DNA from: a virus
IMG/VR virus record: IMGVR_UViG_3300025093_001713
Coordinates: 1-37,747 of that record
Reading direction: 5' to 3' (one strand)
Length of the DNA: 37,747 bases
The stretch's first letter is position 1; the number at the start of each line of letters is the position of its first letter. Made by a program: the position numbers and the translations under genes. Shown here piece after piece: positions 9,461 to 36,309 of this stretch. A model generated the notes under the pieces. It searched no databases. It saw only the letters and a program-made list of their open reading frames with translations, and was not told where the DNA came from.

Positions 9461-9918
9461 CCGCTGACCTGGAAGCACTTGAAGACTGGGCCGGCGGACT
9501 GCTGGCCAAGTTGGAGCCCGGCGAGCGGCGCCGGCTCAACCAGTCGATCGCCCGCAAGCTGCGCAAAAGCCAGCAACAGCGCATTACCGCCCAGCGCAAC
9601 CCCGATGGCACTCCCTTCGCCCCACGTAAAGAGCGGGATCTGCGCGCAAAAAAGGGTAGGGTAAAGCGCAAGATGTTTACCGCCCTCAAAACCGCCAAGT
9701 ACCTCAAGCTGCAAACCGACGCCAACACCATCGGCCTGGCCTTCCTCGGCCGCACCGCACGGCTGGCCCGCGTGCACCAGTACGGCCTGCGCGACCGCCC
9801 CGGCCAAAACTCCCCCCGAGTAAAGTACGAACAGCGCGAGCTGCTCGGTCTCACCAGTGCGGATCTGGACATGATCCGCGACGACCTGCTCGCGCACCTG
9901 GCCGATCGCGGCCTGTAA
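9457..9918 (+). CDS. S: Tail completion / virion morphogenesis protein S (P2 gpS-like)
   Basis: IARKLRKSQQQRITAQRNPDGTPFAPRK is the hallmark gpS motif. I prefer the GTG at 9457, which overlaps the gpR stop (GTGA). The track TTG at 9439 is the alternative. Confidence 0.85.
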   Translation: MTADLEALEDWAGGLLAKLEPGERRRLNQSIARKLRKSQQQRITAQRNPDGTPFAPRKERDLRAKKGRVKRKMFTALKTAKYLKLQTDANTIGLAFLGRTARLARVHQYGLRDRPGQNSPRVKYEQRELLGLTSADLDMIRDDLLAHLADRGL

Positions 9919-9932
9919 AACCCACCCCTACA
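9914..9932. promoter_or_regulatory. Candidate Ogr-type late-promoter site upstream of V
   Basis: TGTAAAACCCACCCCTACA (TGT-N13-ACA) overlaps the S stop codon, in the only intergenic gap before the baseplate operon. Confidence 0.5.
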
Positions 9933-9978
9933 ACGCCAGCAACTGCCAAATCTCGCGCCCCCGCGTGAGCATAGCGGC

Positions 9979-10521
9979 ATGAACCCAATCGCCGAACTCC
10001 GCCGCCGCCTCGACAACATGATCCGCCCGGGCACCATCTACGCCCTGGACGCGGACAGCAAGCGCTGCCGGGTGAAATCCGGCGAGCTGCTCACCGATTG
10101 GCTGCGCTATTTCGTCGACCGCGCCGGCAGCGTGCGCAGAAACAGCGACCCAACCCTCAACGAGCAGTGCGTCGTCTTCAGCCCCAGCGGCGAGATGGGC
10201 GCCGGCTTTGTGCTGGTCGGCCTCAACAGCGACGAATTCCCGGGGCCCAGCGCCAACCCGGATCTGGACAGCACCACCTATGCCGACGGCACATGTTTCG
10301 GGTATGACCAGGGCAGCGGCGACTACACCGTCATGATGACGGCAGAAGGCCAGATCAACATCAGCGCCCCGGGCGGAATCAACATCACCGGCCCCGTCAA
10401 TATCACCGGCCTGGTCACAGTCACTGACGACGTGGTCGCCGACGGCATCAGCCTGGTCAATCACAAGCACGGGATCACCGGCGGCAGCTCAGCCCCCGGA
10501 CCCACGGACGTGCCCCAATGA
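9979..10521 (+). CDS. V: Baseplate central spike protein V (P2 gpV-like)
   Basis: The N-terminus L..LDNMIRPGTI...RCRVKSGELLTDWL parallels P2 gpV. The C-terminus has the HKH-containing spike tip (LVNHKHGITGG). Confidence 0.9.
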   Translation: MNPIAELRRRLDNMIRPGTIYALDADSKRCRVKSGELLTDWLRYFVDRAGSVRRNSDPTLNEQCVVFSPSGEMGAGFVLVGLNSDEFPGPSANPDLDSTTYADGTCFGYDQGSGDYTVMMTAEGQINISAPGGINITGPVNITGLVTVTDDVVADGISLVNHKHGITGGSSAPGPTDVPQ

Positions 10522-10868
10522 ACGGCATGGACCGCAACACCGGCAAGCCGCTCGACGGCTTGGGCCACCTGCGCCAGTCCATAGGCGACATCCTCACCAC
10601 CCCGATCGGCTCCCGCGTCATGCGCCGCGACTACGGATCCCTGCTGCCCGAGCTGATCGACCAGCCCCAGAACGCCGCTACCACCCTGCGCCTGTACGCC
10701 GCCACCTGCAGCGCCCTGATGACATGGGAGCCACGCCTGCGCCTCTCGCGCATCAGCCTGCAGCGCAACGCCAACGGGTCCGCGACCATGGATCTGGAAG
10801 GTGAGCATGCAGACACGGGCAACCGCGTAGAGCTGCAGGTGCCGCTGCAACTGGGGGCTGTCACATGA
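10518..10868 (+). CDS. W: Baseplate wedge protein W (gp25/GPW family)
   Basis: 116 aa. LRQSIGDILTTPIGSRVMRRDYGS..LID is the GPW_gp25 signature. The start is coupled to the V stop. Confidence 0.9.
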   Translation: MNGMDRNTGKPLDGLGHLRQSIGDILTTPIGSRVMRRDYGSLLPELIDQPQNAATTLRLYAATCSALMTWEPRLRLSRISLQRNANGSATMDLEGEHADTGNRVELQVPLQLGAVT

Positions 10869-11764
10869 GCAGCTTCACCGCCGTCGACCTCAGCCAACTG
10901 CCACCGCCCACGGTGGTCGAGCCGCTGGACTACGAAACCATCCTCGCCCGCAAGCTCGCCCAGCTGATCGCGCTGGATCCGGCGTTCGATGCCCTGGTCG
11001 AATCCGACCCCGCCTACAAAGTACTGCAGGTTTCGGCATACGATGAGCTGCATCTGCGCCAACGGGTGAACGAAGCCGCCCGGGCGGTCATGCTGGCCTA
11101 TGCCGTGAATGCGGATCTCGACCAGCTCGCCGCCAACTTCAACGTGCAGCGCCTGCTCATCACCCCGGCCAACCCGCAGGCAGTGCCGCCGGTACCGGCC
11201 GTGTATGAGTCAGACGAGGCCCTGCGCCGGCGCGTGCAGCTCAGCTTCGAGGCCTTCACCACCGCCGGCAGCCAGGGCAGCTACATATTTGCCGCGCTTG
11301 GTGCCAGCGGCCTGGTGCGTGATGCCAATGCCAGCAGCCCCGAACCCGGTCTGGTCTCGGTGTTTGTGCTGTCCCAGGCTGGCAACGGCACCGCATCCGA
11401 GCAGCTGCTCGATGCCGTCACCGCCGCAGTCAATGAAAAGAGCGTGCGCCCGATGACAGATCAGGTCAGCGTGCTTTCTGCCTCGGTGAATGAGTACGTC
11501 ATCACCGCCGAGCTCACCGTGTACCCCGGCCCAGATGCAGAAGTGGTCCGCGCTGCAGCCTACGCCAGCGCCCAGGCCTATGTGGCATCCATGCACCGCA
11601 TGGCCTACGACGTCGCCGTCTCCGGTGTGCATGCTGCCTTGCACATAGCGGGTGTGCAGTCAGTGGATCTGCAGGCACCCCTGGCCAACATCGTCAACGG
11701 CGAGGGCGAGGCATCCTATTGCACCGCCATCAATCTGACGCTCGCAGGTCAGCCCGATGTCTAG
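10865..11764 (+). CDS. J: Baseplate protein J (P2 gpJ-like)
   Basis: 299 aa in the W-J-I order with overlapping stop/start codons. The N-terminus has a baseplate_J-like pattern (LPPP.VVE.LDYE.IL). Confidence 0.9.
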   Translation: MSSFTAVDLSQLPPPTVVEPLDYETILARKLAQLIALDPAFDALVESDPAYKVLQVSAYDELHLRQRVNEAARAVMLAYAVNADLDQLAANFNVQRLLITPANPQAVPPVPAVYESDEALRRRVQLSFEAFTTAGSQGSYIFAALGASGLVRDANASSPEPGLVSVFVLSQAGNGTASEQLLDAVTAAVNEKSVRPMTDQVSVLSASVNEYVITAELTVYPGPDAEVVRAAAYASAQAYVASMHRMAYDVAVSGVHAALHIAGVQSVDLQAPLANIVNGEGEASYCTAINLTLAGQPDV

Positions 11765-12389
11765 CTACACCCCCCTGCCGCCCAACGCTACACCGGCTGA
11801 GCGCAACCTCGCCCTGGTGGCCGGCCACGTAAATGACGTGCCCGTCATCGTGCGTGAAGTCTGGAATGCCGACACCAGCCCCGCCGATCTGCTGCCCTGG
11901 CTGGCCCGCGCTGTGTCGATCGACGTATGGGATCCGGAGTGGACAACCGAGCAGAAGCGCGCCGCGATCAAGGCCTCGCTCGGCGTACATCGCAAGAAAG
12001 GCACCATCGGCGCCGTACTCGACGCCCTGGGCGCGCTCGGCTTCACCGCCAAGGTGCAGGAGTGGTTCAACCAGATTCCCCAGGCCGATCCCTACACCTA
12101 CCGGCTGATCATCGAAGTGGATCAGGTGGGTTACGACCTCGAAGACGTCGCGCTGCTGCTGGAAGTGGTCGGCAGCGCGAAGAACCTGCGCTCACACCTC
12201 ACCGAGATCGCGCCGATCATTCGCAGCCAGGTCGGGCCGGTGCTCGCCTCGGCAGTGATGGTGGGTACCGAGCTGCGCCTTGAGCCAAGCAACGCGCAAG
12301 AAGTTGCAGTACTGAACGACTTCTACGCCGCCGAAGCCCTGCTCGACACCATCGTTAACGTCAACTTGGCCCAGCATTTAGGAGAGTAA
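11757..12389 (+). CDS. I: Tail protein I (P2 gpI-like)
   Basis: 210 aa. LLPWLA.AVSID.WD..W....KR..I......HR.KGT is the gpI signature. Confidence 0.9.
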   Translation: MSSYTPLPPNATPAERNLALVAGHVNDVPVIVREVWNADTSPADLLPWLARAVSIDVWDPEWTTEQKRAAIKASLGVHRKKGTIGAVLDALGALGFTAKVQEWFNQIPQADPYTYRLIIEVDQVGYDLEDVALLLEVVGSAKNLRSHLTEIAPIIRSQVGPVLASAVMVGTELRLEPSNAQEVAVLNDFYAAEALLDTIVNVNLAQHLGE

Positions 12390-12393
12390 GACC

Positions 12394-14217
12394 ATGGCAG
12401 ATCTGCCCTTGGACGAAGCGGTACAACGTTTTCTCAGTAATGAAAAGCGGGTGAATATTTTTATAAACTCACCATCAGGTGAGGAATCGTTTCAGACTAG
12501 CGAGGGCCAAACGATAGCTGTTCTACAGAAAATCGTAGAAGCTGCATTGCTATCAAATGGCATTTACCCGGATGTAGCAAGCGGAGTAGCCGCTCTTGCA
12601 GATGAGGAATATTTCAGTGTCCCCAGCTCCTCAGACGATGGATACCTCGATCTATTTCGACGATTCGGAACTACTGCTAATTATGTAAAAACCTACCCGT
12701 CACTAGAAGGCGCCTCTAATCCTGTAGCTTTTACCTATGGAGAGTCTTCACCAAGAGAAACGGGTGGAAAAGTAATAGCAGACTTAGAGCTTGATGACTT
12801 AGAAGTGTTGGTAGGAGGGCAAAATATAAGGATGCTCGATGCGGCCGGCAAAGTTTTCTTGGAATTAACGAGAGAGGCGGTAAAACTAAACAACCTCTCT
12901 ATTAAAAGCCTTCTCCAGGCTGCTGATATAGAAACTGATAGAATAGAAGGGCCCGATTGGTTTGATTTTCAATCATCGAATGTATCGGTTAGCTTAAAGC
13001 CGGGACGTAAAGCAGCGCTGGTTTTCGAGTCGCAAGGCGTGGAACTCCTGACTTTCGACACCGAAAATAATGTTGTGCATATTCTCGGCAATTCATCCAA
13101 TCCAAATCAAGAGGATGTCGAACCCGTTCCCGATCCACTTTATGTAGAGTCCGGTCCGTCATTGTACTTTGATACGACAGACCCGATTTTCACTGAGCGA
13201 GTTTTTCAGGGCATCCCATCTATCGCGCGGACTGGAAGCAGACTGTGGTGTTGCTGGTACGGCGATGATGACTTAAGCACTTCTGGTTTTGGTGAAGGTC
13301 CTGGTAACTTTGCAATCCTGGGCTATTCAGATGATAGCGGCGCTACTTGGGCTGAGCACGGATATATCAAGTTTCTGGATGACCCCGCGAAACGAGTGTT
13401 TGATATTCAGGCCTGGACTGATCCTGACGGCAAGTTGTGGGTTTTCTTTGCTGTGTGCGGCGGCAACTCTTTAATGGACGGTGTAGAAGGGGCCTGGGCT
13501 GTCAGTTGCAAGAATCCAGAGGGGGAAATTCCGAACTGGTCAACTCCATGGCGTCTGTCGTATTACGGCGTACCGATGCAGCCTGTAGTAATAAACGAGC
13601 AAGTTTATGTCCCGATTGACTATTGGGGCGGAAACGTCAGGCCCGGGGTTGTTGCGCAACGCCCTGATCTTGTCGGCAAGAGACTGTTCCGGCTCGATTA
13701 TCGTAATCGCAAAGCCGAGTACCACTCTACGTTGCCAGCCAACATTGCGGGCAACTCGTTTGACGAAACCAACTTAACACAGCTATTTGACGGGCGCTGG
13801 CTTGCCGCATACCGGACTACTGGGCCGACTGAGTATTCAATATCAGAAGACGACGGCAAAACCTGGACGGCGTCGCAGGTGTGGGCCGCCCTTGGCGACA
13901 ACCCTTCTTCGAGAGTATTTGTGGCAGCGACTCCAAGCGGCCGGCTTCTGGTTTGCTATAACGCGAGCGCCGTTAGAGATAAGTTGACTGTGGCGATATC
14001 GGAGGACGGCGGTGATAGTTTTCCATTCTCTGTATTAATTGATGCGAGAGGTTCAACGTCTTATCCGGGGGTAACCTTTGGTGAAAATGGAGAGATATAC
14101 GTAACTTACGATTACAACCGAACTTCGGATAAGATCGTCTACTGCGCGGTTGTTAACGAACCGGAAATTATCGCTGGGACTTCTGTTCCTCAACTCAACA
14201 TAGTGAGTGATAAGTAA
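12394..14217 (+). CDS. Tailspike-like protein with a BNR/Asp-box (sialidase-fold) beta-propeller domain; candidate depolymerase or receptor-binding protein
   Basis: 607 aa in an AT-rich insert between I and H. It has three Asp-box motifs (SDDSGATW, SEDDGKTW, SEDGGDSF) and a sialidase-like first-blade motif FQGIPSIARTGSRLW in which the Arg of the canonical RIP is replaced by Gly. GGAGAG RBS. Confidence 0.7.
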   Translation: MADLPLDEAVQRFLSNEKRVNIFINSPSGEESFQTSEGQTIAVLQKIVEAALLSNGIYPDVASGVAALADEEYFSVPSSSDDGYLDLFRRFGTTANYVKTYPSLEGASNPVAFTYGESSPRETGGKVIADLELDDLEVLVGGQNIRMLDAAGKVFLELTREAVKLNNLSIKSLLQAADIETDRIEGPDWFDFQSSNVSVSLKPGRKAALVFESQGVELLTFDTENNVVHILGNSSNPNQEDVEPVPDPLYVESGPSLYFDTTDPIFTERVFQGIPSIARTGSRLWCCWYGDDDLSTSGFGEGPGNFAILGYSDDSGATWAEHGYIKFLDDPAKRVFDIQAWTDPDGKLWVFFAVCGGNSLMDGVEGAWAVSCKNPEGEIPNWSTPWRLSYYGVPMQPVVINEQVYVPIDYWGGNVRPGVVAQRPDLVGKRLFRLDYRNRKAEYHSTLPANIAGNSFDETNLTQLFDGRWLAAYRTTGPTEYSISEDDGKTWTASQVWAALGDNPSSRVFVAATPSGRLLVCYNASAVRDKLTVAISEDGGDSFPFSVLIDARGSTSYPGVTFGENGEIYVTYDYNRTSDKIVYCAVVNEPEIIAGTSVPQLNIVSDK

Positions 14218-15344
14218 TGAAGATATCTGGATTTTCCTGGCCTCGAGTAACTAACTGGGCGCCATACCGTGCGGCATTGGGTGATTCAGTCGAAAGTCAG
14301 CCAGCGGGCGGTACGGTATCCTACTCGGAGCTTGTGGACGTTTCTGCGCTTCCCGCCACCTCGGCGGGGCTCCGCTGGCGCGGTGGGCTCAATCTTAAAG
14401 ACGGCAAGGTCTTGATGCTCCCGGCCCATAGCGATGTGGGTAACTTCTACGTCTTCAACCCGTCGAACAATCAGCTAACTGTAGACTCTAATATAGGCGC
14501 ATGGGGCGGCCCTGGTGAATTCTGGGGCGGCGCTTTGTTGAATGACGGGCGTGCAGTTATCGCGCCATTCACCCACCCGGACATTAAAATATACGACCCG
14601 GTATCGAAAATTATGTCCTCGGTATCTACCGGCGCCGGGGCAGGCGGCAACAAATTCCAGGGAGCTGTGACGCTTCTGGATGGCCGAGTCTTGTTCGCCC
14701 CCTACGACTTCTCTAGCGTGAGCTGGTTGACTGCTGATGGCACTGCTTTTGTCACTGGGCCTGCTCACGGCAGAGGGTTAAAGGCGTTCTCGGGTGCTGT
14801 ACTCATGCCAAGCGGCAAGGTGCTGCTTGTTCCGCATCAGTCTACGCACTTTGGTATTTTCGACCCGTCCGACAACAGCTTCGCTTTGGGGCCAGCCCAC
14901 GGCAAGACAGTAGTAGGCCCTGCCATTTTTGGTGGCGGGCTGCTCATGCCGAACGGCAAAGTTTTCGTAATACCTGCCCGAGCCGATTCGGGCATGGTAT
15001 TCGACCCTGTAGAAGGGACCGCAGTAAATGCAGGTGCGCTTACTGCGCACACATCCGAGTGGTATTTGGGCGGCGCCATTCTGCCAGACGGTCGGGTAGC
15101 TTTAGCTCCTGGGTTTCAGCCGAACATATCAGTGTTCGATCCTGATTCTGTTCTGATTAGCCAAGGGGCTTCCATTGGGGCCCTGGCCAATCCGCCGTGG
15201 TTTACAAATGCCGTATCGATGGTTGATGGCCGAGTGCTCCTGATTCCCGCTAGGAGCGAGTTCCTCTCGGCAGTTTCCTTGGACGGTCATGAGGGTGGCC
15301 TTCCGGCAGTGGCGCTTCAAAGCGGTTATCTCAACAGGGCTTAA
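14217..15344 (+). CDS. Seven-bladed beta-propeller (Kelch-like repeat) protein, unknown function
   Basis: 375 aa. The start overlaps the upstream stop (TAATG). There are seven repeats of roughly 45-50 aa, each with the core G(G/A)xLLxDG(R/K)VLxxP...(V/I)FDP. Confidence 0.7.
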   Translation: MKISGFSWPRVTNWAPYRAALGDSVESQPAGGTVSYSELVDVSALPATSAGLRWRGGLNLKDGKVLMLPAHSDVGNFYVFNPSNNQLTVDSNIGAWGGPGEFWGGALLNDGRAVIAPFTHPDIKIYDPVSKIMSSVSTGAGAGGNKFQGAVTLLDGRVLFAPYDFSSVSWLTADGTAFVTGPAHGRGLKAFSGAVLMPSGKVLLVPHQSTHFGIFDPSDNSFALGPAHGKTVVGPAIFGGGLLMPNGKVFVIPARADSGMVFDPVEGTAVNAGALTAHTSEWYLGGAILPDGRVALAPGFQPNISVFDPDSVLISQGASIGALANPPWFTNAVSMVDGRVLLIPARSEFLSAVSLDGHEGGLPAVALQSGYLNRA

Positions 15345-15376
15345 AGAGCCCAAGACGCAAGAATCTAGGAGCGCCA

Positions 15377-16747
15377 ATGCCAACCTACAAATCCATTCAC
15401 ACCGCCCACGGCCTGCAGGCCATGGCTGCAGCCGAGGCCGCAGGCACGCCGATCAACATCACGCACATGGCCGTGGGTGATGGCAATGGCAACTTTGTGG
15501 ATCTCGCCGACGACATGACCGCCCTGGTGAATGAGCGGTTTCGCGCCACAGTGAACCGCGTCTACCAGGATCCGGAGCGCAACTCCAAATACACAGCCGA
15601 GCTGGTGATCCCGGTCAGCGTGGGCGGCTTTACGATCCGTGAGATGGGGCTGTTCGATGTGGACGGCAACCTGTTCGCCGTGGGCAACGTGCCTGCATCG
15701 GTCATGCCTGCCGAGGGTGAAGGCGCGTTCGCGGATATGATCGTTCGCTTCGAGTTCCTGGTCACCAATGCCACAGTGGTCACCCTGCAGGTGGACCCCA
15801 ACGTGTCAGTGGCCACCCAGTCGTGGATCCTCAACAACATCACCATGGCCACGCTGTTGCCGGGTGGTACCACTGGGCAGGTGGCGCGCAAGAATTCCAA
15901 TGCTGATGGCGACATCATCTGGGCGGATCCGGACCAGGTGAACGTGACCGTGGATACCATCGAAGAGAAACAGGAGCTGGTCGACGGGCAAACCGTGGTC
16001 ACCCTGGCGATCTGCACCACACGCGGGCTGGCCGTGTACGTGGACGGTGAGCGGGTACCCAATGACGAATGGACGCCGCACCCCACGGACCCGACCGAGT
16101 TCACGTTCAATACCGCGATTGTCGGCACGCATGAACTGATCTGCGCGCAGAACGAGCCCACCGGTAACGCACCCGCTCCGCTGGAGCGCAGCAAGAACCT
16201 TGCAGACGTCGAGAGCAAAGCCACGTCGCGGGACAACCTGGACGTGTTCAGCCGCGCTGAAACCCGGCAGATGTCACCCGCCGGCATGCTGGCTCACTTT
16301 GCCCGCACCAGCGCCCCCACCGGCTGGCTCAAGGCCAACGGCGCGGCCGTGGGCCGGGTAGCCTACGCGGATCTGTTCGCAGCCATTGGCACCACCTTCG
16401 GCGCCGGCGACGGCTTCAACACGTTCAACCTGCCCGACCTGCGCGGTGAGTTCATCCGCTGCTGGGACGACGGCAAGGGCGTGGATTTTGGCCGTACCCT
16501 GGGCAGCTGGCAGGGCGCTGCAGGTGGTGGGCTGGCCCAGTTCAAACTGATCCAGCAAAAGGCCGTACCGGCTGGCGGCGTAGGGCGTGGGGAGTTCCCG
16601 GTTCCGATGGACGGTAGTTTCAGCCAGTTCGTGCATACCGGTGAATACGGCGGCGATACGAACGGCTGGCTGGGCTTTGCCAATGATCCGCTGGTCACCA
16701 ACCTGCGCCCCCGCAACCGCGCCATGCTCGCCTGTATCAAATACTGA
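15377..16747 (+). CDS. H: Tail fibre protein (P2 gpH-like N-terminus, C-terminal phage tail collar domain)
   Basis: The N-terminus ...TPINITHMAVGDGNGN...RFRATVNRVYQD...TIREMGLFD matches the gpH baseplate-attachment domain. The C-terminus has PTGWLKANGAAV....YADLFAAIGTTFG.GDG.NTFNLPDLRGEF, the collar domain. Confidence 0.9.
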   Translation: MPTYKSIHTAHGLQAMAAAEAAGTPINITHMAVGDGNGNFVDLADDMTALVNERFRATVNRVYQDPERNSKYTAELVIPVSVGGFTIREMGLFDVDGNLFAVGNVPASVMPAEGEGAFADMIVRFEFLVTNATVVTLQVDPNVSVATQSWILNNITMATLLPGGTTGQVARKNSNADGDIIWADPDQVNVTVDTIEEKQELVDGQTVVTLAICTTRGLAVYVDGERVPNDEWTPHPTDPTEFTFNTAIVGTHELICAQNEPTGNAPAPLERSKNLADVESKATSRDNLDVFSRAETRQMSPAGMLAHFARTSAPTGWLKANGAAVGRVAYADLFAAIGTTFGAGDGFNTFNLPDLRGEFIRCWDDGKGVDFGRTLGSWQGAAGGGLAQFKLIQQKAVPAGGVGRGEFPVPMDGSFSQFVHTGEYGGDTNGWLGFANDPLVTNLRPRNRAMLACIKY

Positions 16748-16757
16748 GGGCCACCCC

Positions 16758-17042
16758 ATGCAAGCCTACCAACTCAACGCCGCAGGGCTGTTCCTGGGCA
16801 TCACCGAGGCGGACGAAAGCCCGCTCGAACCGGGCGTTTACCACATGCCCGCCGGCTGCATTGCCACACCCCCGCCCGAGACCTGGCCGGATGACACCTG
16901 GCCCAGGTGGAACGGCTCAGCCTGGCAGCTGGTCAACAAGCCCACCGCCCCAGCCGAGCCCAGCGCAGCGGAAAAGCTCGCTGCCTTCCTCGAAGCGAAT
17001 CCAGATGTGGCCGCGCTGGTCGACACTCCGGAGCCGGTGTAG
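16758..17042 (+). CDS. G: Tail fibre assembly chaperone (gpG/Tfa-like, short)
   Basis: 94 aa from the ATG at 16758, directly after H. It has the P.G..ATPPP......P.WNGSAWQLV pattern typical of Tfa N-domains. The upstream part of the track ORF overlaps H and is rejected. Confidence 0.7.
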   Translation: MQAYQLNAAGLFLGITEADESPLEPGVYHMPAGCIATPPPETWPDDTWPRWNGSAWQLVNKPTAPAEPSAAEKLAAFLEANPDVAALVDTPEPV

Positions 17043-17072
17043 CATCCATCTGGCTTAGGTCGAAGTAAGCAC

Positions 17073-17095
17073 CCCCGTTTCGGCGGGGTTCTTTG
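17073..17095 (+). terminator. Weak rho-independent terminator after the fibre operon
   Basis: CCCCG-tttcgg-CGGGG stem followed by TTCTTTG. Confidence 0.45.
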
Positions 17096-17103
17096 CCTGC
17101 CCC

Positions 17104-17122
17104 TGTAAACACGCCCCCCACA
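17104..17122. promoter_or_regulatory. Candidate Ogr-type late-promoter site upstream of FI
   Basis: TGTAAACACGCCCCCCACA (TGT-N13-ACA). Its centre (17113) lies 89 nt upstream of the sheath ATG (17202). It shares the TGTAAA half with the V site. Confidence 0.55.
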
Positions 17123-17201
17123 ACCCCAGCCGCTCCCAATCCCCGCGCCTACGCGACAGCATGACCCCTGACAGCAACTACCGCCCTGCAGGGAGCCAAC
17201 C

Positions 17202-18371
17202 ATGCCCGATTCATATCATCACGGCGTCCGAGTCATCGAGATCAATGAGGGCACGCGCCCCATTCGCTCCATTTCCACCGCCGTCGTGGGTATGGTGTGC
17301 ACCGCCTCCGATGCAGACGCCACCGTATTTCCGCTTAACCAGCCCGTTCTGCTCACCAACGTGCTCAGCGCCATCGGCGATGCCGGTACCGAAGGCACGC
17401 TTGCCGCCAGCCTGCGCGCCATAGCAGACCAGACCAAGCCCATCACCGTCGTCGTGCGGGTAGAAGAGGGGCTGGACGCGGCAGAAACTACCGCCAACAT
17501 TATCGGCGGCGCTACAGGTGGTGAATACACCGGCATGCAGGCGCTGCTCGCAGCAAAGGCCCGCCTCGGTGTTACCCCGCGTATTCTCGGTGTACCTGGT
17601 CTGGATGACCCAGCCGTTACCGCTGCCCTGGTCACCGTTGCACAGTCCCTGCGCGCCTTCGCTTACGCCAGCGCCTGGGACTGTGCCGACAAGGAAGCCG
17701 CTGTGGCCTACCGCGACACCTTCGGCGCGCGTGAGCTGATGCTCATCTGGCCAGACTTCCGCGCGTTCGACACCACCGCAGCCGCCACAGTAGATGCGCC
17801 CGCAGTCGCCCGCGCCCTCGGCCTGCGCGCCAAGATCGACCAGACCGTCGGCTGGCACAAGACGCTCAGCAACGTGCCCGTCAACGGCGTGACCGGCATC
17901 AGTAAGGATGTGTTCTGGGATCTGCAGAACCCCGCGACCGACGCCGGCTACCTGAACGAGAACGAGATCACCACCCTGATCCAGCAGAGCGGGTTCCGCT
18001 TCTGGGGCTCGCGCACCACCGCCGAGGATCCGCTGTTCGCCTTCGAGAACTACACACGCACCGCGCACGTGGTGGCCGACACAATGGCAGAGGCGCACCT
18101 GTGGGCCATCGACCAGCCCATGCACCCTCAACTGGTGAAAGACATGATCGAGGGCATCAACGCCAAATTCCGCGAGTGGAAGACCCGCGGCTACATCATC
18201 GACGGCAGCGCCTGGTACGACCCCGAGCTCAACACCCCGGAGCGCCTCAAGGCCGGCAAGCTCGCGATCGACTACGACTACACACCGGTGCCCCCGCTGG
18301 AAGATCTGACCTTCCAGCAGCGCATCACCGATCGCTACCTGATGGACTTCGCCAGCCGCATCAACGCCTGA
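17202..18371 (+). CDS. FI: Tail sheath protein (P2 gpFI-like)
   Basis: 389 aa. The N-terminus YHHGVRVIEINEGTRPI and the overall size and position are those of contractile sheath FI. Confidence 0.92.
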   Translation: MPDSYHHGVRVIEINEGTRPIRSISTAVVGMVCTASDADATVFPLNQPVLLTNVLSAIGDAGTEGTLAASLRAIADQTKPITVVVRVEEGLDAAETTANIIGGATGGEYTGMQALLAAKARLGVTPRILGVPGLDDPAVTAALVTVAQSLRAFAYASAWDCADKEAAVAYRDTFGARELMLIWPDFRAFDTTAAATVDAPAVARALGLRAKIDQTVGWHKTLSNVPVNGVTGISKDVFWDLQNPATDAGYLNENEITTLIQQSGFRFWGSRTTAEDPLFAFENYTRTAHVVADTMAEAHLWAIDQPMHPQLVKDMIEGINAKFREWKTRGYIIDGSAWYDPELNTPERLKAGKLAIDYDYTPVPPLEDLTFQQRITDRYLMDFASRINA

Positions 18372-22461: not shown

Positions 22462-23678
22462 TCGAGCAGCTCACCAGCCACACCGCGCCGGCGTTCCGCC
22501 TGGCCGTCGACGGCCGCGACATCACCCCCAAGGTCAACAACCGCCTGCTGCGCCTCACGCTCACAGACAACCGCGGCATCGAGGCCGACCAGCTCGATCT
22601 GACCCTGCACGACCACGACGGACTGCTCGCCATACCGCCGCGCCGCGCGGTGATCGACCTCTGGTTGGGCTGGCAGGGCAACGCCCTGGTGTACAAGGGC
22701 AGTTTCACCGTGGACGAGGTAGAGCATTCCGGCGCCCCGGATGTGCTTATGATCCGCGCCCGCAGCGCCGACATGCGCGCCGGCCTGACGCGCAAACGCG
22801 AGCGCAGCTGGCACCAGACCACCCTGGGCGAGATCATCGCCAGCGTGGCCGCAGCGTACAGCCTCATCCCGGTGGTCGATCGCGTGCTCGGCCAGATCCC
22901 GGTACCGCATCTGGACCAGGTGGACGAATCAGACGCCAACCTGCTCACCCGCCTGGGTACCGACCACGACGCGATCGCCACCGTAAAGGCCGGCCATCTG
23001 CTGCTGCTGCCCGTAGGGGCCAGCAAAACCGCCAGCGGGGTCAACCTGCCGCACATCACGCTCACCCGCCGCGACGGCGACAGCCACCGCTACCTGGTCG
23101 CCGATCGGGACGCCTACACCGGCGTGCGCGCCTACTACTACGACCCCAACAGCGCAGAACGGCTCGAGGCGATCATCGGCACCGAAGACAACATCAAAAC
23201 CCTGCGCCACGTGTATGCCAACGAGCAAAGCGCCCTGCAGGCTGCCCGGGCGGAATGGCGACGGCTGCAACGTGGCCTGGCTACCCTCAGCTACACCATC
23301 GCCCGCGGCCGGCCAGACCTTATCCCCGAGATGACCTTCAGCCTGGTCGGCATCAAGCAGCAGATCACCGAAGTGGTCTGGCTCTGCGCACGCCTCACCC
23401 ATGAGTTGAGCGACAGCGGCTACATCAACAGGCTGGAGCTAGAAAACCAATTGGCCGAAGACGAGGATCTGGCCGCGCTGGTAGAGGGCGGCTATACCGG
23501 CGTGCTGGCTTGGTACCGGGACAAAGACGGGGCCCAGAAGAAGATCACCCAGGGCGACCAGGCCAACCCCAAGCGGTTGACCCATCTGTATGCCAGTAAG
23601 GGGAGTGCGGAAAGGGCGGTGGAACGGGAGTTTGAGAGGTTGGAAGTGGGGCCCGGTGATTCGGCCCCTAATGCCTAG
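22458..23678 (+). CDS. D: Tail protein D / late control D (P2 gpD-like)
   Basis: 406 aa, the last gene of the tail operon, with its start coupled to the U stop. Confidence 0.9.
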   Translation: MIEQLTSHTAPAFRLAVDGRDITPKVNNRLLRLTLTDNRGIEADQLDLTLHDHDGLLAIPPRRAVIDLWLGWQGNALVYKGSFTVDEVEHSGAPDVLMIRARSADMRAGLTRKRERSWHQTTLGEIIASVAAAYSLIPVVDRVLGQIPVPHLDQVDESDANLLTRLGTDHDAIATVKAGHLLLLPVGASKTASGVNLPHITLTRRDGDSHRYLVADRDAYTGVRAYYYDPNSAERLEAIIGTEDNIKTLRHVYANEQSALQAARAEWRRLQRGLATLSYTIARGRPDLIPEMTFSLVGIKQQITEVVWLCARLTHELSDSGYINRLELENQLAEDEDLAALVEGGYTGVLAWYRDKDGAQKKITQGDQANPKRLTHLYASKGSAERAVEREFERLEVGPGDSAPNA

Positions 23679-23683
23679 GCAAT

Positions 23684-24865
23684 TTATTCTTTCGGTTTGG
23701 GAATAATACCCATTTTGCGTTGGAACTCCTCGAAAGGCTCCAGTCCCTTTGCCGCGTCCTTTATCAACTGATGATTGGGGTTAGCATCCAGGTTGCGGTG
23801 CATCTCGTTGAAAGGTTCCAATATTTTAGCCGCGTTCTTTATCAATTGTTGATTTGGAGGCTCTAGCAGTGATTTGAGATTGTCCGACATGGGTTGTAGC
23901 TTTAGAGCATTTTGAGTGGCCATTACCGAATCAAGCAAAGCCCTTGCATCACTGTTTAAAACTGGGCTGTTCTTGAGTTCATCTAGTTTGGCAGTTTTAG
24001 ACTCACCCCTTCTTGGCTGTTCAACTACTGCAGCGGCCTTGTTTCTTGGTTCGATCATGGCTTTCATCGCTTTATCGTAGAACAGTGATGCTGCCGCCAT
24101 CTCTCTGTCTGTGAAACCTAATCTGCGGGCTTCTTCCGACGCCTCGTCCATGGCCAATGAGATATTTCGCAGATACTGGTCATGCATCTCCTTGGTTAAC
24201 TTAATTATCAATCCCTTTTCCCGCGTTTTGAGTTCTTTGAGCTCGTTATTGCTTTGTTTTTTTAACTCGCCCTCCCGCTTGATAAAGTTATCTATTCTTT
24301 CTTGCAGCTCGCTTACTTCTAACCTGTGAACTTCCCCGTCTTTAGTTTTGTTCTCTCTGGCGACTTCGATCTGCTTTTGTGCGGCGTCCAGTTGTTCTTC
24401 AAGGTATTCGAACTTTTTATTAACGGAATTTAGCTGCCGATCCTTTGCATCAAGTTCAGCCTCCGACTCAGCGACCTTTCTATCCGCCTCGCGCCGGTTT
24501 TCACGGGCTTCCTCCCTTGACATAGGATTGGCATCAACGTGCTTGACGTAGTCTTCCTTCGCCTTCCGGATTTGCCAGCGCCAGTATTTCATCAGATAGC
24601 GGTTTGCAAAGGGGTAGCTAAAAACGAACGCCGCCGCGAAGATCCCTGGGTAGATAATGCCGAGCGTTATCCCATTCAGCCAGGGCGATTGCAGTGCGAA
24701 GTGGGCTTGTAAGACGGCCAGTTTATCTTCTACAGAGTTTGTAGAAAGCAGCCACAGAATCACCTTGTGATTCAACACCACCCAGGAAAGGATGAATGGC
24801 AGGAAAATGGGGTTGGTAACCCGCTCTGATATCTGCACCTTTACCGAATCCAATACTTCTCTCAT
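23684..24865 (-). CDS. Membrane-anchored coiled-coil protein of unknown function (cargo)
   Basis: 393 aa and AT-rich. It has two to three N-terminal hydrophobic helices (PIFLPFILSWVVL..., LGIIYPGIFAAAFVFSYPF), about 150 aa of E/K/R-rich heptad-like sequence, and a C-terminal tandem 26-aa repeat. A GAAAGGA RBS lies in the 12-nt gap after the upstream small gene. Confidence 0.75.
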   Translation of the reverse strand: MREVLDSVKVQISERVTNPIFLPFILSWVVLNHKVILWLLSTNSVEDKLAVLQAHFALQSPWLNGITLGIIYPGIFAAAFVFSYPFANRYLMKYWRWQIRKAKEDYVKHVDANPMSREEARENRREADRKVAESEAELDAKDRQLNSVNKKFEYLEEQLDAAQKQIEVARENKTKDGEVHRLEVSELQERIDNFIKREGELKKQSNNELKELKTREKGLIIKLTKEMHDQYLRNISLAMDEASEEARRLGFTDREMAAASLFYDKAMKAMIEPRNKAAAVVEQPRRGESKTAKLDELKNSPVLNSDARALLDSVMATQNALKLQPMSDNLKSLLEPPNQQLIKNAAKILEPFNEMHRNLDANPNHQLIKDAAKGLEPFEEFQRKMGIIPKPKE

Positions 24866-24877
24866 GTCGAATCCTTT

Positions 24878-25072
24878 CTATGGTTGATCTTGTTCAGGCT
24901 TAGACGTGGTCGCCTCGCCCGCGCTACTGGCGATAAAGGCAAAGCACGCGGCAAATCTCAACAGATCCGCCTGGTGCAAAGGGTGCATTCTTCGAAAATG
25001 CTGGATCAACAATGCTTCTTCATCGCTCAGCGGCTCTACGTTCGCGTTTCCTTCGAGTTGTTCGATAAACAT
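24878..25072 (-). CDS. Small soluble protein resembling the C-terminal tail of the adjacent XRE repressor (cargo)
   Basis: 64 aa from the ATG at 25072 (AGGAG 8 nt upstream). The track start at 25081 is a GTG lying inside that RBS. It aligns without gaps to the repressor C-terminus (see findings). Confidence 0.65.
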   Translation of the reverse strand: MFIEQLEGNANVEPLSDEEALLIQHFRRMHPLHQADLLRFAACFAFIASSAGEATTSKPEQDQP

Positions 25073-25199: not shown

Positions 25200-25583
25200 C
25201 TATTGGCAAAGCTCAAGCCCCTGATGGATTAGCGGCCCGACGCTGTACCTGGTACCTGGCAATTCAGGGTTCTCCAGCCAGATGTCATCGAGGGTATCCA
25301 TATCGCTCTGTGTGCGCGCTGGCCCGTTGAGCGGATAGGTATCACCCGTCACAACGTCAGCGACCACCACCGCATTCCTGCGGAGACATATCAGGTGCAT
25401 TTCCTCCATGCTGAATGGCCATTCCGGCCCATAGCTCTCGGCGCTGATTAGCACAATATTGGGCGCCTTAGGTGGAGTGGGGGCTGCGGGGAGCTGCTCA
25501 ATATCATTGGCATCTGGCGCATCGCCACAAGCAGACAATAGAGCTGCAGCAAAAGTCGCAATAAGTGCATGTCGAAATTCCAT
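25200..25583 (-). CDS. Lipoprotein, DUF2511/YebY-like (cargo)
   Basis: 127 aa with a signal peptide and lipobox LSAC (Cys19). The segment W.F..EE..L.C......V......YPLN...A......I....P......PLI.....LC matches my recollection of E. coli YebY. An AAGGAAAA RBS lies in the 41-nt gap after the repressor gene. Confidence 0.7.
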   Translation of the reverse strand: MEFRHALIATFAAALLSACGDAPDANDIEQLPAAPTPPKAPNIVLISAESYGPEWPFSMEEMHLICLRRNAVVVADVVTGDTYPLNGPARTQSDMDTLDDIWLENPELPGTRYSVGPLIHQGLELCQ

Positions 25584-25624: not shown

Positions 25625-25975
25625 TCAGCCCTCTTTTGACACTCCATACACAGCAGCCGTCTCGGCCAGGGCGGTGGTGAGGCGCTCAACGGCAGCCTGA
25701 TCAGGGGCGGGAAGTTTGCGGTAGTGGTCTAGCACTGATGCCTCTTCCTCTGTGAGCGATCCCTCCAAAGCAGGCGTTCTGCGGCCAGTTAGAACGTAGA
25801 GCACATCGACGCCATTCTCTGCGATTGCGGCAAGGTAGGGCGCGTCGGGGTGCCTGGAACCCTTCTCATAATTCAGCTGAGTGGTTTTCGTCACCCCGCC
25901 AAGAGCGCCGAAATCTTCTTGATTGAAGCCCAGCCTCCGGCGCTCTTCTTTCAGTCTTTCGCCGAAGTTCAACAA
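25625..25975 (-). CDS. Prophage repressor, XRE-family HTH (CI/C-like)
   Basis: HTH_XRE core FGERLKEERRRLGFNQEDFGALGGVTKTTQLNYEKGSRHPDAPYLAAIAENGVDVLYVLTG. It is divergent from a Cro/Ner-like gene. There is no in-frame ATG, so the probable start is a TTG at 25975 (or 25972) about 10 nt after AGGAA. The 214-aa track ORF upstream of this point is antisense to the cro-like gene and is rejected. Confidence 0.8.
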   Translation of the reverse strand: MLNFGERLKEERRRLGFNQEDFGALGGVTKTTQLNYEKGSRHPDAPYLAAIAENGVDVLYVLTGRRTPALEGSLTEEEASVLDHYRKLPAPDQAAVERLTTALAETAAVYGVSKEG

Positions 25976-25992
25976 ATGGGCACCATTTCCTG

Positions 25993-26022
25993 TTGACAGT
26001 TCAACGAATGTTGAACTAATCT
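25993..26022 (+). promoter_or_regulatory. Putative early (lytic) promoter
   Basis: -35 TTGACA (25993-25998), an 18-nt spacer, and -10 TAATCT (26017-26022). It lies about 30 nt upstream of the cro-like ATG. Confidence 0.5.
25999..26016. promoter_or_regulatory. Operator: inverted repeat GTTCAAC-N4-GTTGAAC
   Basis: Perfect 7-bp arms fill the -35/-10 spacer of the putative lytic promoter. Further half-sites occur at 25967-25973 (GTTCAAC, overlapping the repressor start codon) and 26031-26036 (TTGAAC), with a degenerate copy at 25992-25997 (GTTGAC). Confidence 0.6.
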
Positions 26023-26053
26023 CGTCTGTATTGAACACTTTTAAACCCTTTGG

Positions 26054-26296
26054 ATGACTATGCCAAACCTCAGAACCCCAGAGCAAGCGCGCGAATGGCT
26101 GGATCAGCAGGGCAAATCCGTGACTGAGTTCGCCGCCGAACATGATCTCGACCTGCACACCACCTACCAGGTGCTCTCCGGCGCCAAGAAAGGCAAACGG
26201 GGCGAGGCGCACAAAGCTGCCGTCGCACTGGGCATCAAGCAGGGCGAAGTACCCCTGCCGCCGTTTCAACCTGTACCCGCTCAGATCAGCCAGTAA
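26054..26296 (+). CDS. Cro/Ner-like DNA-binding protein (BcepMu gp16-like family)
   Basis: 80 aa, the first gene of the rightward early operon. RTPEQAREWLDQQGKSVTEFAAEHDLDLHTTYQVLSG..KG.RGEAHKAAVALGIK fits the small HTH family I recall as phage-associated BcepMu gp16. Confidence 0.75.
   Translation: MTMPNLRTPEQAREWLDQQGKSVTEFAAEHDLDLHTTYQVLSGAKKGKRGEAHKAAVALGIKQGEVPLPPFQPVPAQISQ

Positions 26297-34694: not shown

Positions 34695-36309
<1,615 letters not shown>

Follow-up and report, generated by a model that had tools for sequence, protein, structure and literature searches.

The 37,747-nucleotide stretch of DNA analyzed here (positions 1 to 37,747 of IMG/VR virus record IMGVR_UViG_3300025093_001713, referred to as the window) is a P2-type prophage of a marine Halopseudomonas that carries two genes between baseplate gene I and tail fiber gene H. 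A complete P2-type morphogenesis module is present, comprising terminase, capsid and lysis genes, R/S, V, W, J and I, followed by H, a chaperone, the sheath, the tube, the tape measure, U and D. Gene I (11757 to 12389; 210 aa; Pfam Tail_P2_I, 8e-43) terminates with a TAA codon at 12387 to 12389, and its final codons contain the ribosome-binding site (AGGAGAG, 12380 to 12386) of the first additional open reading frame (ORF), which spans 12394 to 14217 and encodes a 607-aa protein. The second ORF (14217 to 15344; 375 aa) overlaps the first by one base (TAATG), and the two genes, both intact, are translationally coupled. A cassette-specific intergenic spacer (15345 to 15376) with the ribosome-binding site for H (AGGAG, 15367 to 15371) separates them from the gpH-type tail fiber gene, which encodes the primary fiber (15377 to 16747; 456 aa; Pfam Phage_tail_fib, 9e-46, and Collar, 1e-20), and a tail fiber assembly chaperone-like gene of 95 aa follows at 16755 to 17042 (PHROG 1766, 4.5e-6). 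Genes I through tfa lie on the plus strand, the overall order is J-I-[607]-[375]-H-tfa-sheath, and a terminator scan located the first same-strand terminator-like hairpin 3' of the I-to-H cluster at 17073 to 17088. A first-pass annotation, prepared from the nucleotide sequence, had placed two extra genes between I and H, with the I stop codon at 12389, a ribosome-binding site for H near 15368 and an intact H/G pair downstream, and this layout was confirmed in every respect. The exact 607-aa protein was also found on a 225-kb marine metagenome contig (JGI 3300006790) and in a second assembly. Both genes lie where a second receptor-binding protein (RBP) gene would be expected, within the tail morphogenesis operon beside the baseplate and fiber genes.

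The base composition of the two genes differed sharply from that of the remainder of the window. In 300-nucleotide intervals, the G+C content over the two genes averaged 0.517, with a minimum of 0.423, compared to 0.610 +/- 0.046 elsewhere, and the G+C content at third codon positions (GC3) was 0.46 for the 607-aa gene and 0.58 for the 375-aa gene versus 0.78 to 0.81 for J, I, H, tfa, the sheath gene and the tape measure protein (TMP) gene. The 60 nucleotides that begin at position 12421 contain exactly 21 G+C, the value that had first drawn attention to the region. The DNA is AT-rich and horizontally acquired, as had been supposed. The first-pass annotation had further proposed that a canonical P2 tail had gained a unique AT-rich island, fitted between the ends of its I and H genes, resulting in an unusual dual receptor-binding system with no identifiable means of attachment. 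The sharp drop in G+C content and GC3 is consistent with this proposal, as are two other findings. In Ralstonia phage RSY1, a P2-type phage, H directly follows I with no slot gene between them, so that the canonical order does exist; and the Phage_tail_fib baseplate attachment domain (PF12571), which Pfam searches identified in the downstream gpH, was found in neither of the two inserted proteins.

However, the relatives of this prophage contradicted the idea of a unique island. Relatives were collected from Halopseudomonas genomes and viral contigs by a search with gpI; they included loci L010 (97% amino acid identity in gpI) and L011 (H. sabulinigri; 78%) as well as viral contigs L012 (94%), L015 (90%) and L013 (78%), and in each of these relatives the distance from I to H was 1.8 to 3.3 kb. 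All seven related J-I...H loci examined (L010, L011, L012, L015 and L028 to L030) possessed a slot gene encoding the same conserved N-terminal head fused to an unrelated body, the products being 639 plus 275, 570, 1069, 942, 669, 638 and 656 aa in size. The slot gene of L011 (570 aa) has a pectate-lyase-type motif, those of L012 and L015 encode the 1069- and 942-aa proteins, and L028 to L030 are arranged J-I-head...H with slot proteins of 638 to 669 aa. An eighth locus, L022, has a head gene directly after J and I (516 aa; head fused to a SASA esterase), and the contig stops before H. The bodies were mostly carbohydrate enzyme-like, i.e., SGNH or SASA esterases, BNR_4 or pectate-lyase-like, although several of these matches were weak. 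In L010, the cargo consists of the 639-aa protein, with a weak BNR_4 match, and a second gene at 9559 to 10386 whose 275-aa product matched no family and showed no similarity to the 375-aa protein of the window, by which it was rejected as a relative of the latter; two-gene cassettes therefore recur in the I-H slot. Moreover, the slot genes of the relatives were lower in G+C content than their own flanks in all cases (0.50 to 0.58 versus 0.62 to 0.64), indicating that the window is the most pronounced case of a tendency found throughout the group.

A comparable arrangement exists in P2-type phages that are less closely related. Burkholderia phage Mica (gp14, a pectin-lyase-like "putative tailspike") and Pseudomonas/Stutzerimonas phage ZRG1 (an SGNH hydrolase) each carry an extra gene exactly between I and H and retain H and the chaperone, as does the window. 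Unlike the cassette of the window, each of these is a single gene of a different enzyme fold, and a BLASTP search for an N-terminus common to the window protein, Mica gp14 and the ZRG1 hydrolase detected no similarity to either the head or the body. The tailspike is not discussed in the Mica genome announcement. Because slot genes occur across the lineage, and in Mica and ZRG1 as well, neither a second RBP as an oddity of this phage nor an insertion into a canonical I-H junction could be upheld, and we consider the unique-island explanation very improbable. Rather, comparison of these loci suggests that the I-H junction is a resident slot for a second receptor-binding gene in this lineage and that only the cargo is foreign. 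A comparison with related prophages had been recommended in the first-pass annotation, and its outcome, which by that annotation's own standard goes in part against its reading, is that the slot is a normal, conserved part of the fiber module of the lineage, while this particular cargo (607 plus 375 aa) is not conserved and has no characterized role. A lineage-specific C-terminal extension of gpI was considered as a docking site and was dropped, since the gpI of RSY1 is 205 aa long despite the lack of a slot gene.

The alignments with relatives also located the junctions of the exchanged unit. By blastn, DNA homology to L010 extended from 9907 through gene I, which forms the left homology arm, to 12541 and resumed at 15376, while homology to L012 resumed at 15374. 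On the left side, near-identity continued across the I stop codon, the ribosome-binding site and about 11 codons of the head; beyond approximately codon 11, the head was represented by a diverged, AT-rich version, and all similarity was gone at about codon 50. Homology to relatives thus enters the first slot gene by about 148 nucleotides, and the left recombination zone lies inside the head and not at the I stop codon, which corrects, for the left side, the earlier view of an island bounded exactly by gene ends. On the right side, similarity restarted 1 to 3 nucleotides before the ATG of H, which forms the right homology arm, placing the right recombination junction at 15374 to 15376. From these breakpoints, the exchanged unit spans the interior of the head to the base before gene H, and the likely recombination arms, as judged from the alignments, are the 5' end of the head and that of H, both of which are conserved. 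The head of the window protein is itself AT-rich (G+C content of 0.44), and for this reason the fusion of head to body was probably already present in a lower-GC donor.

A separate exchange was apparent in gpH. Its distal tip (16513 to 16708; residues about 380 to 445) had no DNA homology to L010, L011 or L015, the remainder of H being 87 to 90% identical, whereas the H gene of L012 was homologous throughout, distal tip included. This pattern indicates that the fiber tip was exchanged independently of the slot cassette.

The head that is common to the slot proteins occupies residues 1 to 49 of the 607-aa protein (12394 to 12541) and has a consensus of about 48 residues (MAELPLDEAV.RF.SNEERI..FVNAP.GEE...T..GE.VPVLP). 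The window head was 40 to 62% identical in amino acid sequence to the heads of L010, L011, L012 and L015, and it corresponds to no Pfam or PHROG family. In an exhaustive HMMER search of 1.84 billion cluster representatives, the head was found at residues 1 to 50 of about 18 representatives of 516 to 969 aa, the bodies of which included GDSL/SGNH, SASA-type sialate O-acetylesterase and BNR_4 domains; several bodies matched nothing in Pfam, and most bore no relation to the others. A conserved N-terminal module joined to a variable C-terminal body, as found here among relatives, is to be expected of a second RBP, and the distribution of bodies is characteristic of an adaptor at the N-terminus to which different receptor-binding bodies can be joined. 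The head is accordingly placed as an obvious candidate attachment module. In principle, such a module would answer the question of docking, so that the first-pass view of docking as wholly unexplained is not upheld.

When metagenomes were scanned with a profile of the head, 24 loci were recovered, only 3 of which were arranged J-I...H. In about eight, the head gene follows a siphovirus-type trio of genes ([165 aa][116 aa][960 to 1208 aa]); in three (L043, L044 and L047), and also in L024, diverged versions of the head follow genes of about 750 aa (Phage-tail_3), about 400 aa and about 300 aa, a context that looks like the modules of gene transfer agents or alphaproteobacterial siphophages. The gene of about 400 aa in L024 encodes a muramidase, and a Phage_BR0599 gene lies upstream. 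The head is therefore in use with tail architectures of at least three kinds. When the P2-lineage head was compared by hhalign with the N-terminal sequence "M..NTGNPV..DL.DN" of the siphophage homologues of the 607-aa protein, the result (probability of 22%; E value of about 1e-3) was suggestive, but homology was not accepted. Loci L032 and L034 lie 33.5 kb apart on the same contig (Ga0206130_10000577) in two copies of one siphovirus-type tail-tip region, the downstream genes having identical heads and different bodies (1220 aa, complete, versus more than 1545 aa). The two copies may represent a concatemer, or two variants with the receptor-binding body as their sole difference may have been assembled together.

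Beyond the head, the 607-aa protein begins with a neck motif (residues 54 to 105, YPDVASGVAALADEEYF...; 12553 to 12708) that is common to the siphophage homologues, L015, L051 and gp89 of Pseudomonas phage Zuri. Similarity to the siphophage homologues starts at residues 54 to 57, directly after the head, and phages Zuri and Ebordelon match residues 57 to 105 with 57% identity. The middle region (residues about 106 to 252; 12709 to 13149), which aligns with P0002 to P0004, was modeled by AlphaFold2 (AF2) as a monomer with a predicted local distance difference test (pLDDT) score mostly below 50; it is possibly an oligomeric stalk or beta domain. The remainder (residues about 253 to 607; 13150 to 14217) is a six-bladed, sialidase-fold beta-propeller of the GH33-like type, modeled with a pLDDT above 90. 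Pfam assigned the protein to BNR_2 (1.4e-14; 54.6 bits versus a cutoff of 31.4), and the top Foldseek matches of the propeller were all GH33 sialidases, with E values of about 1e-12, in agreement with profile searches.

The sequence features of the propeller argue for an active site. Three Asp-boxes (S-x-D-x-G-x-x-W/F) are present at residues 312 to 319, 484 to 491 and 536 to 543. D337 (acid/base) and the nucleophile pair E458 and Y557 align with their canonical counterparts in 7LBU and 4BBW and show no or almost no variation in 59 homologues, and R474 corresponds to the second arginine of the sialidase triad. The same 59 homologues all have R269 and R507, but these two are off the canonical positions, and the assignment of R507 as the third arginine is uncertain. 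The first arginine of the triad is missing. FQGIPSI of the 607-aa protein aligns to the FYRIPAL motif, which places Gly273 at the RIP arginine position across the whole subfamily, and the invariant R269 sits four residues upstream; consequently, the substrate may not be sialic acid. In comparison to the GH33 exo-sialidases of Micromonospora viridifaciens (1EUR), Cutibacterium acnes (7LBU) and Bacteroides (4BBW), the 607-aa protein has the same six-bladed propeller, Asp-boxes, catalytic Asp, Glu/Tyr pair and second Arg, and differs in that Gly replaces the RIP Arg, with an invariant Arg four positions before it, in that the propeller is fused to a phage N-terminal region of 250 residues, and in an identity of only 14 to 18%.

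The substitution at Gly273 would be compatible with the sialidase-fold domain being a non-catalytic, lectin-like binding module. This we consider unlikely, since the canonical positions are occupied by the acid/base Asp, by the Glu/Tyr nucleophile pair and by the second Arg, and since D337, E458, R474, Y557, R269 and R507 are all kept in six phage proteins of only 27 to 45% identity, a degree of conservation that argues for a working active site. As judged from these residues, the 607-aa protein may be a retaining glycosidase, or at least a binder, for a surface glycan with an acidic keto-sugar of the nonulosonic- or ketoaldonic-acid type; binding is probable, and cleavage probably occurs as well.

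Sialidase-fold propellers are known to serve as receptor-destroying spikes in phages. The endosialidase tailspikes of the phage K1F type (GH58) combine such a propeller with a C-terminal stalk and an intramolecular chaperone domain. The 607-aa protein resembles these spikes in its fold and predicted role, but Pfam detected neither a stalk nor an intramolecular chaperone domain at its C-terminus; because the protein ends at the propeller (residue 607), it is without the stalk and chaperone domains of the K1F type. No GH58 entry was present among its top 50 fold matches or its top 60 sequence matches.

The 375-aa product of the second gene was confidently modeled as a seven-bladed beta-propeller with an N-terminal helix (AF2 pLDDT of 86.9; predicted TM score of 0.88). 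It consists of seven repeats of about 46 residues with DG[RK]V motifs at positions 62, 110, 155, 199, 246, 291 and 337. No match was obtained in Pfam, PHROG or NCBIfam or by tblastn in 50,697 phage genomes. The best match of the model in the PDB was virginiamycin B lyase (Foldseek E value of 1e-12; TM score of 0.68/0.86), and the fold is that of this enzyme and of other seven-bladed propellers (Kelch/NHL-like); the 375-aa protein is only 10 to 12% identical to that group, and no invariant polar residue suggestive of a lyase site was apparent. In 14 homologues, the only invariant columns were Gly, Pro and Phe, a pattern that favors a binding or structural role over catalysis; the C-terminal N373 was nearly invariant, and the alignment of the internal repeats was imperfect. 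The best viral fold matches (TM scores of 0.78 to 0.80) were to domains at the C-termini of long proteins, including one fiber protein with collagen repeats, and some sequence homologues carried fiber-like or collagen-like N-terminal extensions. Most likely, the 375-aa protein would be a non-catalytic glycan-binding or accessory subunit carried on the gene 1 product.

The two genes travel as a unit. A BNR_2 gene (about 630 aa) directly followed by a propeller gene (about 370 aa) was found at the distal end of siphovirus-type tail modules ordered TMP, DUF1833, a gene of about 130 aa, a tip protein of about 1000 aa, sometimes a gene of about 150 aa, and then the pair. In L004/L005, L006 (Pseudomonas asiatica) and L018, the products were 33 to 45% identical to the 607-aa protein and 31 to 40% identical to the 375-aa protein. 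Stand-alone propeller homologues in L026 and L027 each had a sialidase-fold gene directly before them (E values of 5e-61 and 3e-72), so that the two genes were adjacent in six of six contexts examined, siphovirus-type tail modules of Pseudomonas prophages among them. The sialidase-fold partner in L027 (789 to 3170; 793 aa) has a third, unrelated N-terminus (MSNRRSIADFPRNEAGLVDEF...), indicating that the BNR-plus-propeller module has been grafted onto at least three N-terminal adaptors. A full-length homologue of the 607-aa protein (27% identity) also occurs in the tail module of Synechococcus phage Ssp-JY37, after the tape measure gene; the gene that follows it was examined as a propeller relative and was rejected for lack of similarity.

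The strict co-inheritance of the 375-aa gene, together with its position immediately downstream of, and coupled to, that of its presumed client, is also what might be seen if the propeller did no more than chaperone the assembly of the 607-aa spike or cap it transiently, being absent from or loosely bound to the mature virion. There is precedent in the phages of Alteromonas, where a host recognition module made up of a fiber and its cognate chaperone is common to schito-, myo- and siphoviruses (PMC10579305). Like the present pair, that module is a two-gene unit of RBP plus partner that occurs across different morphologies in phages of marine Gammaproteobacteria; it has a T4-like fiber tip and a small chaperone in place of the two propellers found here (PMC10579305). 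We nonetheless give the chaperone or cap role only limited weight. No homology to Tfa or chaperone families was detected for the 375-aa protein in Pfam, PHROG or NCBIfam. Known Tfa proteins are small and differ in fold from a seven-bladed propeller. Furthermore, homologous propellers form the C-terminal domains of fiber-like and collagen-like proteins, and the Ssp-JY37 sialidase-fold homologue has no such partner.

It was also considered whether the two genes might be morons that function in lysogenic conversion or in another accessory capacity. Their products would then be a sialidase-like enzyme, either kept within the cell or released, and a lectin, both of benefit to the lysogen and neither a part of the virion. 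Their foreign composition would fit such a role, as would the lack of a PHROG for either protein and the fact that the sequence relatives of the 607-aa propeller domain are mostly "exo-alpha-sialidases" of cellular origin, about 380 aa in length, that come from Verrucomicrobia and other phyla. Yet promoter- and terminator-like sites over 9900 to 17300 showed no excess over shuffled expectation, and hence no internal moron signals, and the genes are coupled inside the late tail operon. In addition, the conserved head is fused to many different bodies at this same locus, and the same pair occupies the tail fiber position of siphovirus-type modules. The 607-aa protein, as read from its sequence, starts MADLPLDEAV... 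with no hydrophobic leader and therefore has no evident signal peptide. Taken together, these findings make a moron function most improbable.

The explanation that we favor, and consider likely, is that the region is the variable cargo of a resident second-RBP slot and encodes a spike, with the head as its anchor, together with a co-inherited propeller partner on the tail. According to this model, the head of the chimeric 607-aa spike would anchor the protein to the tail tip and would be followed by the neck and a stalk-like middle region, and the C-terminal sialidase-fold propeller would recognize, and probably trim, a surface polysaccharide. The 375-aa propeller would ride on the gene 1 product as an accessory binding subunit, a role as an assembly factor or cap being less likely. 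Both slot genes would be cotranscribed and translationally coupled with the baseplate and fiber genes, and the virion would therefore carry gpH fibers plus the spike complex. A virion with both a fiber and an enzyme-like spike had been suggested in the first-pass annotation and is still the most likely outcome, incorporation itself being what we infer from the arrangement. The cassette would have been acquired by homologous recombination through arms at the 5' ends of the head and of gene H, and its source would be a pool of phages of lower G+C content, where siphovirus-type tails make use of this two-gene module as well.

Several observations weigh against the slot-cargo model. Incorporation into the virion is deduced from position and homology, neither protein is covered by any PHROG or NCBIfam family, and the N-terminal 250 residues of the 607-aa protein were poorly modeled as a monomer by AF2. 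The RIP arginine is replaced by glycine throughout the subfamily, so that the substrate may be something other than a sialic acid, and the Ssp-JY37 homologue has no propeller partner. As for docking, 21 of the 24 metagenome head loci are in two non-P2 tail contexts with no detectable J, I or H homologues. For the siphovirus tip proteins encoded just before head-bearing genes, a docking domain shared between their C-terminus and gpI was sought with hhalign; none was found (probability of 0.2%), and the idea was rejected. It is for these two reasons that the head is only a candidate anchor.

A broader interpretation of the same distribution is that the head is a cross-morphotype plug by which cassettes are exchanged among contractile P2-type tails and noncontractile tails of at least two kinds, implying a structurally conserved socket on baseplates or tail tips with no other apparent relationship, and that the spike and propeller form a heteromeric, two-propeller receptor-binding complex not described before. 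We put this forward only tentatively and regard it as rather doubtful. If the head does dock to different tail types, a shared socket would explain how RBP modules cross morphotype boundaries.

Exchangeable enzymatic RBPs with conserved adaptors are well known. In the modular tailspike and RBP systems of the Ackermannviridae (TSP clusters) and of Klebsiella and Acinetobacter prophages (depolymerases and esterases), as here, a conserved N-terminus is combined with swapped C-terminal carbohydrate-active domains, tail module genes are exchanged between unrelated phages, and the bodies include SGNH, SASA, beta-helix and beta-propeller folds. In Klebsiella, SGNH esterases are prevalent in prophage RBPs, and beta-propeller folds account for 18% of the depolymerase domains of lysogens' prophages (PMC13123978, PMC12491483). 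Unlike those systems, the present one has a short adaptor of about 48 aa with no Pfam or PHROG family, a slot between P2 genes I and H, and a two-gene cargo. What is new is the finding that, in a P2-type clade, the I-H junction is a resident site for a second RBP, together with a map of its junctions; the unannotated head family of about 48 aa that crosses tail types; and the uncharacterized two-propeller cassette. An apparent oddity is thereby turned into a rule for one P2-type clade, in which a second RBP, usually an enzymatic one, has a dedicated slot at the I-H junction that is ready for recombination. The definition of the slot and its homology arms should aid the annotation of prophage host range, and the slot offers a natural scaffold for studying extra spikes on P2-type phages and tailocins. 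Two uncharacterized families are also flagged, a phage sialidase-fold spike that lacks the RIP arginine and its seven-bladed propeller partner.

Elsewhere in the window, one other stretch was equally AT-rich. This region, at about 23650 to 25000 (G+C content of 0.42 to 0.50), lies directly after gene D and contains a minus-strand ORF (23684 to 24865; 393 aa) with no Pfam or PADLOC match, followed by a DUF2511 gene (25200 to 25583) and a helix-turn-helix repressor-like gene (25625 to 26269). The 393-aa ORF, which is situated where P2-type prophages usually carry accessory genes, may be a moron or may function in defence or exclusion. Finally, a large serine recombinase gene (Resolvase, Recombinase and Zn_ribbon_recom domains) is present on the plus strand at 34695 to 36254, its 3' end overlapping a minus-strand tRNA-Met gene (36233 to 36309), and a bacterial GGDEF gene follows. 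This region is probably the prophage end and attachment site; a serine instead of a tyrosine integrase is atypical for P2-type phages.

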